From Candidatus Bathyarchaeota archaeon (GTDB taxonomy: Archaea > Thermoproteota > Bathyarchaeia > Hecatellales > Hecatellaceae): a stretch of 64,000 nucleotides of DNA. The stretch lies in contig JBQPWD010000001.1 in NCBI GenBank assembly GCA_052246995.1, positions 1-64,000 on the forward strand. Reading direction: 5' to 3'. Below are positions 32,953 to 34,708 of this stretch, piece after piece; the stretch's first letter is position 1; each line of letters starts with the position of its first letter. The position numbers and the translations under genes were made by a program. The notes below the pieces were generated by a model that saw only the letters and a program-made list of their open reading frames with translations, was not told the origin of the DNA and did not search any database.

Positions 32953-33537
32953 TTGAAGAGCAGTATTAAACTCTTGATTACAAGTTCACATAGACCAACA
33001 AAACTTATAAGAAGTTTTATGAACGATTTAGCTTCGGTTATACCCAACTCCATTAGAGTTAACCGTGGAAAAATGAGTTTTATGGATGTGGCTAAAAAAG
33101 CTCTAGCCCTAAACATAAACTTGGTTTTAATTGTTAGTAGGTGGAAAGGTGGGCCTGGAAAGATTGAGTTTTATGGGTTTGAAGATAGAAAGATGAAGCT
33201 TTTACCTCCAATTATATACGTTAAAGGTGTGCGTTTACAAAGAACCCATAAAATCTTCTTTAGAAGATTTAAAGTTAAACCAAGAAGCTTATCAATAGTT
33301 AAGCCTTTAAACAACGATTCTGAAGTTCAAAAACTTGCTGAAACTTTAGCTGAAACCCTTAAAATTCCATTTGTAACCTCTACTGAAAACGTGGTATCCG
33401 ATGTTTTCATGAAAATTTATAGGAACAATGAGGGAAAACTTAAGATTACCTTTATTTCCGTCATGAATGACGGAATTGAAGTTGGACCTGAAATTTTTAT
33501 TAAGCATATTAGATGGGCGAGTGTTAAGCATGATTAA
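32953..33537 (+). CDS. Brix/Imp4 domain ribosome biogenesis protein
   Basis: LITSSHRPT..IRSF..DL, RVNRGKMS, RWKGGPG. Confidence 0.88.
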   Translation: MKSSIKLLITSSHRPTKLIRSFMNDLASVIPNSIRVNRGKMSFMDVAKKALALNINLVLIVSRWKGGPGKIEFYGFEDRKMKLLPPIIYVKGVRLQRTHKIFFRRFKVKPRSLSIVKPLNNDSEVQKLAETLAETLKIPFVTSTENVVSDVFMKIYRNNEGKLKITFISVMNDGIEVGPEIFIKHIRWASVKHD

Positions 33538-33778
33538 AGCAAAAATAACGTTTAAAACTTCAAAGAAAAAATGTAAAAAAATTGTTAAAGTGTTAAAGCC
33601 TGAAACAAGATTTACACCTACATCTAGAAGTAAAACTAAAATCAAAAATGGAGGTAACACGGTTGAGGTCACATTTTATGCTAAAGATTTTTCAGCATTA
33701 AGAGCATCAATAAACTCATTTTGCCGCTGGGTTAAAATGGTTGATGAGGTTTTAGATGTTGCTAAAGATTTAAGATGA
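33530..33778 (+). CDS. pcc1: KEOPS complex subunit Pcc1
   Basis: LKPE...P.SRS, AKDFSALRASINSF.RW; follows the Brix gene. Confidence 0.82.
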   Translation: MIKAKITFKTSKKKCKKIVKVLKPETRFTPTSRSKTKIKNGGNTVEVTFYAKDFSALRASINSFCRWVKMVDEVLDVAKDLR

Positions 33779-34060
33779 TACCCTTTTAAATTCATGAGTT
33801 TATGTAATAATGTTGTCCACTTTTTATGGGTTGGTAAGCTTCATACACTTTGGTTTAAGGTTGAATTAGTAAAAATAATCATTAATCTGTTATGTAAACT
33901 CTTCTGCGACTTCAAATAACGCTAACATGGAAAGCTTAAACAAGGCACTACTTGATGTTAATAATAACTTTACTTTTTAAGGCTAAAAACAACTAAGCTG
34001 AAAAATTCGATAAAACCTAAGGAACGTTACACTTAAAAGTTTTAGATACTTAAAAGTTTA

Positions 34061-34121
34061 TAGGTGATGAAATCGCTACACCCTGAAAAATGTTAATGAT
34101 GAGGGTTCAAAGCTCTGAAGT
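34061..34121 (+). ncRNA. Box C/D 2'-O-methylation guide sRNA, predicted double guide for tRNA-Gln(UUG)
   Basis: C box GTGATGA 34064-70; 12-nt guide AATCGCTACACC; D' CTGA 34083-86; C' ATGATGA 34096-102; 12-nt guide GGGTTCAAAGCT; D CTGA 34115-18; intergenic. Confidence 0.88.
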
Positions 34122-34129
34122 CTTAACTT

Positions 34130-34708
34130 TTAATTTACTTCCCCAGCATTGTTGTTGGCTATGATTATTGCTTTAAATTCTGTTTGTCTCCAAACTTCTA
34201 AAAGTTTTTCAGGTTTACATTTAAGATATGAACCTACAGCTGGGTCATGAATATACAAGTAATTCTCATCGTAACCTACAACAACAACCGTATGTAAATA
34301 CTCGTTGATTTGTATCCTTATGATAACAGGTTTTCCATTATCAATTTCACTTTTAAGTTGCTTCATGTTTAAGGATGCGTAGTAACACTTTCCAAGGTAG
34401 TTTGAAAGTAGAGGAAGCATGTTTTCAAATCTATCGTAACCCAAATAATTGATTTCATCTTGAGTTAAATTATATCCATAATATGCTAGGACCATGCTTG
34501 CAGATGCTTCTGAACAAAACCATGGTTTCTGGTAGAAGAATGGTACGTCTAATATTTTGATTTTAGTTAAGTTTTCCTCTTCAAGCTTGCCAGAATAAAT
34601 TTGGAGGTTTGTTTGTGGAGCTTTACTGATAAAGGTTAAACATAAAATAATTAGTGTAAGTGTAATAGTTAAGACTAAAATTTTGATGCATGTTTTTCCA
34701 TTTATCAT
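34130..34708 (-). CDS. Membrane-anchored C39-like cysteine peptidase
   Basis: N-terminal TM helix; VPFFYQ...FCSEASASMVL.YYG, HTVVVVGYD, IHDP. Confidence 0.85.
   Translation of the reverse strand: MINGKTCIKILVLTITLTLIILCLTFISKAPQTNLQIYSGKLEEENLTKIKILDVPFFYQKPWFCSEASASMVLAYYGYNLTQDEINYLGYDRFENMLPLLSNYLGKCYYASLNMKQLKSEIDNGKPVIIRIQINEYLHTVVVVGYDENYLYIHDPAVGSYLKCKPEKLLEVWRQTEFKAIIIANNNAGEVN

Follow-up and report, generated by a model that had tools for sequence, protein, structure and literature searches.

Positions 34064–34118 (plus strand) of the window hold a genuine archaeal box C/D double-guide sRNA for tRNA-Gln. The window is the whole stretch of DNA that was analysed, 64,000 nt in length, from a Candidatus Bathyarchaeota archaeon. 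One guide pairs with the anticodon arm of tRNA-Gln(UUG) and the other with the D arm of the same tRNA, and homologous loci in related archaea display guide changes that accompany changes in the tRNA. The locus probably gives rise to an independently transcribed box C/D sRNA of about 55–60 nt that works with L7Ae, Nop5 and fibrillarin and carries both of its guides to tRNA-Gln. Methylation of the wobble uridine of tRNA-Gln(UUG) (Um34) is a well-supported predicted function. The D-arm guide may serve chiefly for binding.

The features of the locus are as follows.

33467–33778, plus strand: gene of a Pcc1-family protein, the upstream neighbour
34033–34039, plus strand: TATA-like element TTAAAAG, its start 31 nt 5′ of the C box
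34050–34056: second copy of TTAAAAG
34064–34070, plus strand: box C, GTGATGA
34071–34082, plus strand: D′ guide AATCGCTACACC, 12 nt, pairs with G9–G19 of tRNA-Gln(UUG) and tRNA-Gln(CUG)
34083–34086, plus strand: box D′, CTGA, invariant in six of six collinear homologues
34087–34095, plus strand: D′–C′ spacer, 9 nt, variable (6 to 12 nt in homologues)
34096–34102, plus strand: box C′, ATGATGA, invariant in six of six collinear homologues
34103–34114, plus strand: D guide GGGTTCAAAGCT, 12 nt, pairs with G30–C41 of tRNA-Gln(UUG)
34115–34118, plus strand: box D, CTGA
34128–34131, plus strand: T run 10 nt past box D, a possible archaeal termination signal
34130–34708, minus strand: Peptidase_C39-like gene, the convergent neighbour, with a MeaB GTPase gene beyond it

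The perfect C, D′, C′ and D boxes and the two 12-nt guides that an earlier note had described are read directly from the DNA at 34064–34118. Box C (consensus RUGAUGA) is near the 5′ end, box D (CUGA) is near the 3′ end, and the internal D′ and C′ boxes are present between them. The C–D′ and C′–D spacings are both 12 nt. A spacing of about 12 nt at both places is the rule that Tran and co-workers reportedly put forward in 2005 for archaeal box C/D sRNAs. The TTAAAAG element would be suitable as an archaeal promoter, and in G001, which belongs to the same genus, TTAAAAG is likewise found 31 nt before box C. The T run may act as a terminator, and T runs are found 3′ of box D in the homologues as well.

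The sRNA gene sits inside a 351-nt intergenic gap. The distance from the Pcc1-family gene to the sRNA is 285 nt, and because of this gap and the TATA-like element that the sRNA has of its own, co-transcription of the two seems unlikely. Pcc1 is a subunit of KEOPS, which is another tRNA-modification system.

The genome consists of 17 contigs with 36% G+C and is 100% complete. A strict four-box regular expression finds one site in the 1,530,043 bases of the genome and none in the reversed genome; a relaxed form of the expression finds four sites in the genome against none in the reversed genome. The sequence at 34064–34118 is the only fully canonical four-box candidate of the 1.53 Mb genome. DNA of the sRNA locus is contained in hot-spring metagenomes (four runs, two of which are labelled metatranscriptomic but flagged as “probably DNA”). 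Run X5, which is on record as RNA and is represented by assembled contigs only, shows a single 255-nt contig, at 34360–34614, which corresponds to the neighbouring gene.

The tRNA-Gln genes lie outside the window, as the earlier note had stated, and both were located elsewhere in the genome.

C3:88373–88448: tRNA-Gln(UUG) gene, on a contig other than that of the sRNA
C2:139181–139274: tRNA-Gln(CUG) gene, intron-containing, wrongly labelled Pyl by aragorn

Both guides pair with the tRNA-Gln(UUG) gene on contig C3. The tRNA-Gln(CUG) gene of this genome has an 18-nt intron after position 37.

The D guide target had been placed in the anticodon arm from consensus, and the sequence inferred at that time, GGCUUUGGACCC, is identical in the genome's own tRNA-Gln(UUG). 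The guide pairs with G30–C41 at 12 of 12 positions, with 10 Watson-Crick pairs and two G-U pairs, which involve G30 and G37. Counting from box D, A-U34 is the fifth pair, and the N+5 rule therefore points to the wobble uridine, U34, on the real gene as it had on the consensus. The N+5 index, 35, is the anticodon start called by aragorn. In tRNA-Gln(CUG) the corresponding C34 is mismatched to the guide A at N+5, thus N+5 falls on U34 of tRNA-Gln(UUG) and not on that position of the CUG isoacceptor. The next-best sites of the D guide in stable RNAs all carry mismatches, and its best rRNA match is 8 bp in length including three G-U pairs. The scan of 16S and 23S rRNA that had been proposed gives no better target for this guide. 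The D guide also resembles the tRNA T arm, which leads to spurious similarity matches to tRNA genes.

The D′ guide pairs with G9–G19 of both tRNA-Gln genes over 10 bp (nine Watson-Crick pairs and one G-U pair), contiguous from the box, and N+5 falls on U13 in both. D-loop position 20 of this genome's tRNA is mismatched to the guide. The D arm of tRNA-Gln was correctly named as the target in the earlier note, but the genome has the sequence GGUGUAGCGGCC at this place and the duplex is 10 bp in length and not 11. The D-arm sequence that the note had inferred, GGUGUAGCGGUC, is present in the relatives G006, G007 and G009. An equal 10-bp match of the D′ guide is found in 23S rRNA, GGUGUAGCGG, at about C5:189395–189406; for this guide the rRNA scan thus gave an equal site. 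The D′ guide also matches tRNA-Val(UAC) at 11 of 12 positions, with the mismatch beside N+5. With 12 bp for the D guide and 10 bp for the D′ guide, both pairings reach the minimum of 9–10 bp for an archaeal box C/D sRNA, and both have an A-U pair at N+5. In the folded tRNA, U13 is part of the D stem, which counts against the Um13 model. The 23S rRNA match of this genome (G000:C5:189101–192517) spans 3417 nt against 2987 model positions, and it may hold an insertion or an intron.

Chance matches were assessed with 4000 random genomic 12-mers compared with 8703 nt of tRNA and rRNA. Pairing of 12 bp with at most two G-U pairs is reached by 46 of them, and pairing of 10 bp with at most one G-U pair by 208. 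By rough arithmetic, the probability that both guides land on one tRNA of about 80 nt by chance is about 1e-5. Over the whole genome each guide has many matches of at least 10 bp in coding DNA, as chance predicts, and the target call therefore rests on the restriction to stable RNAs, on the double hit and on conservation.

Homologues were sought with model R1, for which six collinear copies (alignment A2) were used. The sRNA is found in six of the 14 genomes of family f1, the Bathyarchaeia family to which this genome belongs; it was not found by the model search in the other eight. The carriers belong to genera g1, g6 and g7, with none in g2–g5. Alignment A2 displays invariant sequences for the four boxes and both guide cores, and variation in the spacer and flanks. 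A class-wide pattern search has matches in f1 alone (six of 401 genomes). The phylum-wide search with the collinear pattern gave five matches in 301 genomes, of which those in G461, G424 and G494 were dropped as they are without C′ boxes. Matches with three mismatches in G003 and G004 were judged to be chance from their box-less context. A pattern search gave none in 26 genomes of f53 and none in 26 genomes of f47.

A second form of the sRNA is circularly permuted. The order in G401 is C, anticodon guide, D′, C′, D-arm guide, D; the anticodon guide occupies the C–D′ slot and the D-arm guide the C′–D slot. Model R2, built from four permuted copies (alignment A3), finds the permuted form in 21 of the 23 genomes of family f58, several of which are single-contig genomes. 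Family f58 belongs to the same phylum as f1 and to another class. The permuted form keeps both guide cores, …CAAAGC… and …CCGCUAC…, together with the U34 register. Its boxes show variants, namely AUGAAGA for C and CCGA or GUGA for D in some copies, and D′ is often degenerate.

A phylum sample searched with model R2 has 47 of 151 genomes with a match at E 0.05 or better. Among the 25 loci listed outside f1 and f58, 10 are clear permuted double guides (seven in f44, two in f65 and one in f57), two in f59 have CAUAG, and 13 are other C/D RNAs or coding-sequence matches. Pairing with tRNA-Gln in f44, f57, f59, f65 and f53 is predicted solely from guide similarity. The two f59 loci, L116 (G506) and L117 (G478), keep the D-arm guide and have CAUAG in place of CAAAG in the anticodon guide; with a UUG anticodon, CAUAG would mismatch exactly at N+5. 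Three further R2 matches, L126 (G543) and L133 (G427) in f53 and L125 (G448) in f54, carry in the D slot the sequence GGGGCCAAAGCU, an anticodon guide of the Gln type. These three have the collinear order and a different D′ guide. Look-alikes in f53 with UAAAAG would fit U34 of tRNA-Lys(UUU).

Paired changes are also seen in the boxes. Loci of genera g6 and g7 (L006 in G006, L007 in G009 and L008 in G007) have the C box GTGAAGA paired with the D box CAGA, and this change falls on the U-U position of the kink-turn. In f44 (L111, L112, L118, L121, L122, L131 and L132) the D box is GUGA and C is found at C-box position 6. The paired C and D box changes in g6/g7 and in f44 look like compensatory evolution of the C/D motif.

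The guide and target co-variation that the earlier note had proposed to look for in relatives is present at tRNA positions 38 and 20. The tRNA-Gln(UUG) genes of G686 and G689 have CUUUGGC, with C38, and the guides there are GCCAAAG compared with UUCAAAG elsewhere, which restores the pairs at 37 and 38. The guide U opposite G37 (G-U) is retained by every f1 copy and by G401, and is C in G686 and G689. On the D-arm side, G006 and G007 have U at D-loop position 20 and A in the guide, and G401 has C in the tRNA and G in the guide at the same place. In G001 the guide pairs at 12 of 12 positions with the D arm of that genome's tRNA-Gln(CUG). The guide changes agree with the tRNA sequence but not with the bases that continue the match in 23S. 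Introns occur in some of the tRNA-Gln(UUG) genes examined: that of G007 (L039, G007:C1:29018–29123) has one of about 30 nt in the D arm, and that of G686 (L075, C171) has one of about 29 nt in the anticodon loop.

The two guides behave differently with respect to the predicted methylation site. In every copy read, the anticodon guide has CAAAG two nt before the D or D′ position. This distance is constant and thus the U34 register is fixed. The distance of the D-arm guide to box D is not constant among families. The f1 register is U13 in six of six copies, with a Watson-Crick A-U pair at N+5. Read by eye from the D boxes CUGA, CCGA and AUGA, the f58 register is U13 in 13 of 21 copies, A14 in five and G12 in two, with one ambiguous. 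All seven f44 copies have G12 (by eye from the D box GUGA) and the single f57 copy has A14. Thus the predicted pairing is conserved and the D-arm nucleotide predicted to be methylated is not conserved. The Um13 assignment of the earlier note agrees with the N+5 rule in this genome, but the register shifts between G12, U13 and A14 in relatives and a rival 23S match exists. Because of the drift in register Um13 is uncertain, and the prediction carries moderate weight. In the article texts searched, no report of ribose methylation at tRNA position 13 was found.

The mechanism that we consider probable is as follows. The sRNA would form a particle with L7Ae, Nop5 and fibrillarin. The D guide would open the anticodon arm of tRNA-Gln(UUG) and direct SAM-dependent 2′-O-methylation of the wobble uridine. 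The D guide would leave position 34 of tRNA-Gln(CUG) unmethylated, as the C34 of that tRNA forms a mismatch at N+5. The D′ guide would bind the D stem and loop (G9–G19) of the same tRNA, giving extra affinity and holding the tRNA unfolded, and its N+5 position would place fibrillarin on U13. The genome encodes all three proteins: fibrillarin and Nop5 genes are adjacent on C7 (PF01269, 321 bits, and PF01798, 237 bits), and there are two L7Ae-family genes (PF01248 at 111 and 70 bits). The boxes, their spacing, the pairing, the conservation, the co-variation and the three protein genes are observed directly. Transcription of the locus, RNP assembly and methylation at either site are what these observations lead us to infer.

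The role of the D′ guide may be read in another way. It is possible, and we hold this tentatively, that the guide is a non-catalytic clamp or chaperone that keeps the anticodon arm open for Um34, and that D-arm methylation is not selected. U13 would then be unmethylated, or methylated incidentally only. The pairing core, which is the complement of G12–G19, is kept in f1, f58, f44 and f57, the indels beside box D shift N+5 between G12, U13 and A14, and the box-proximal guide positions 1–2 are free to vary, all of which speak for binding as the selected property. Ziesche and co-workers are said to have found in 2004 that a double guide is most effective when its two targets are in cis, which suits the same reading. 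Double guides are also described as binding more stably and acting as chaperones, some of them with one non-methylating guide (Dennis 2015, PMC4644070). Against a purely structural role, the f1 register is U13 in all six copies with the A-U pair at N+5, and D-loop G18 of the Sulfolobus acidocaldarius tRNA-Gln is modified, according to the account in Wolff 2020 (PMC7668247), so that D-arm guides of this type can be catalytic. A different target for the D′ guide is improbable. It would be the 23S rRNA stretch GGUGUAGCGG, where N+5 falls on a U (23S index 299), and the tRNA match would be a coincidence. In this genome the 23S match is equal in length and quality (nine Watson-Crick pairs and one G-U pair). 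However, conservation of the stretch is not seen in the two f1 members with readable 23S, G002 and G003, both outside the sRNA-bearing set. The tRNA D arm is constant. Where the guide has changed, in G001, G006, G007 and G401, it gains pairs at tRNA positions 20 and 20a and none with the GG that continues the 23S match, and several families share the D-arm guide. These points make the rRNA alternative less likely for this genome; the 23S is unassembled in the sRNA-bearing genomes G001, G006, G007, G009, G011 and G401.

That the locus is a chance box-like motif, or an untranscribed relic without function, is hardly credible. Rfam gives no match for the sRNA at gathering thresholds, which is a point in favour of this explanation. 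The best sub-threshold matches are snoPyro_CD (22.6 bits, gathering threshold 45) and sR3 (17.2 bits, gathering threshold 41), with only the boxes aligned, and the shortfall counts against those particular families and not against the C/D sRNA class. The strict motif occurs once in the genome and is absent from the control, the boxes and guides are invariant across six genomes in which the flanks diverge, the permuted homologue recurs in another class (21 of 23 genomes), and the guides show compensatory changes with the tRNA. These observations all stand against chance.

A further idea, that Um13 replaces a missing pseudouridine 13, was dropped, as the enzyme and the double guide show no link. 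TruD/Pus7 (PF01142) is present throughout f58 (23 of 23 genomes), the family that carries the same double guide. The four archaeal control genomes are all positive as well. Family f1 gave no PF01142 match in any of its 14 genomes, the present 100%-complete one among them, and the f1 lineage may be without the synthase for pseudouridine 13 and 35. The sequence context of Pus7 is described by Muller et al. 2009 (PMC2651775), and G9–G15 of tRNA-Gln fits that context.

The genome has other putative guides of this class. A scan with the Rfam snoPyro_CD model below its threshold shows eight candidates, all with variant boxes, the guides of which match 23S and 16S sites and two wobble positions.

C2:194121–194176, minus strand: candidate C/D sRNA, tRNA-Leu(CAA) C34, 12 bp
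C3:58346–58405, minus strand: candidate C/D sRNA, tRNA-Glu(UUC) U34, 11 bp
C3:57577–57633, plus strand: candidate C/D sRNA, variant boxes
C5:129760–129815, plus strand: candidate C/D sRNA, variant boxes
C1:234316–234371, plus strand: candidate C/D sRNA, variant boxes
C2:47875–47933, minus strand: candidate C/D sRNA, variant boxes
C2:51238–51303, plus strand: candidate C/D sRNA, variant boxes
C1:293993–294049, minus strand: candidate C/D sRNA, variant boxes

Two of these candidates are no more than about 1 kb apart and adjoin tRNA-Leu(CAA) on C3. The tRNA-Gln sRNA is one of a small set of ordinary guides in this genome, several of which are aimed at wobble positions.

To our knowledge, the C/D sRNAs of Bathyarchaeia have barely been described. 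The present analysis gives a concrete annotation for tRNA-Gln in uncultured hot-spring Bathyarchaeia, i.e. a predicted Um34 and a D-arm contact. It also links at least five families of one phylum by one double-guide sRNA, which occurs in two gene orders related by circular permutation. Drift of the D-arm register, set against the fixed U34 register, constitutes a natural experiment on whether second guides serve methylation or binding. As a tentative proposal, the D-arm guide may be an ancient, phylum-wide “second hand” whose register wanders (G12, U13 and A14, with G18 in Sulfolobus) and which has been selected for holding the tRNA unfolded, or else it may write Um13 on both tRNA-Gln species in this lineage. 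The known picture of how the C/D sRNP works is unchanged by these results.

Among the closest known systems is that of S. acidocaldarius, where a C/D sRNA for U34 and G18 of tRNA-Gln(UUG) is attributed to the Lowe snoRNAdb and Ziesche 2004 as cited by Wolff 2020 (PMC7668247). Um34 itself is reported there as observed in S. acidocaldarius tRNA-Gln(UUG). The likeness is that one sRNA addresses the wobble U34 and the D arm of the same tRNA. Unlike the Sulfolobus form, with its second guide on G18, the sRNA analysed here pairs with G9–G19 and has its D-arm N+5 at U13; the two were compared by description only.

Pyrobaculum has a listed sR27:U34Gln (Lui et al. 2018, PMC6009581), and the present D guide is likened to it by the described U34 target alone, both guides being directed to the unique sequence that surrounds U34 in tRNA-Gln. 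sRNAs with two guides for a single tRNA are described as rare in Pyrobaculum (sR46, sR61, sR123 and sR126), and sR27 is absent from that list. The same source describes a circular permutation between the sRNA families sR56 and sR57 and reports target migration by indels for Pyrobaculum sRNAs. Both phenomena, in the form in which they are described there, are seen in the homologues of the tRNA-Gln sRNA.

The C/D guide in the intron of Haloferax pre-tRNA-Trp directs Cm34 and Um39 (as summarized by Breuer et al. 2021, PMC7994747). This is comparable in that two guides address two sites of one tRNA including position 34. However, the Haloferax guide is encoded in an intron of the tRNA that it modifies, and its two sites share the anticodon arm, whereas the tRNA-Gln sRNA is free-standing and its sites are in different arms. 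The earlier note had regarded a single sRNA on the D arm and anticodon arm of one tRNA as unusual; the S. acidocaldarius sRNA recounted in Wolff 2020 (PMC7668247) had already provided such a case. The double hold on the D arm and the anticodon arm is an already known arrangement, which is here found to be widespread in related archaea.
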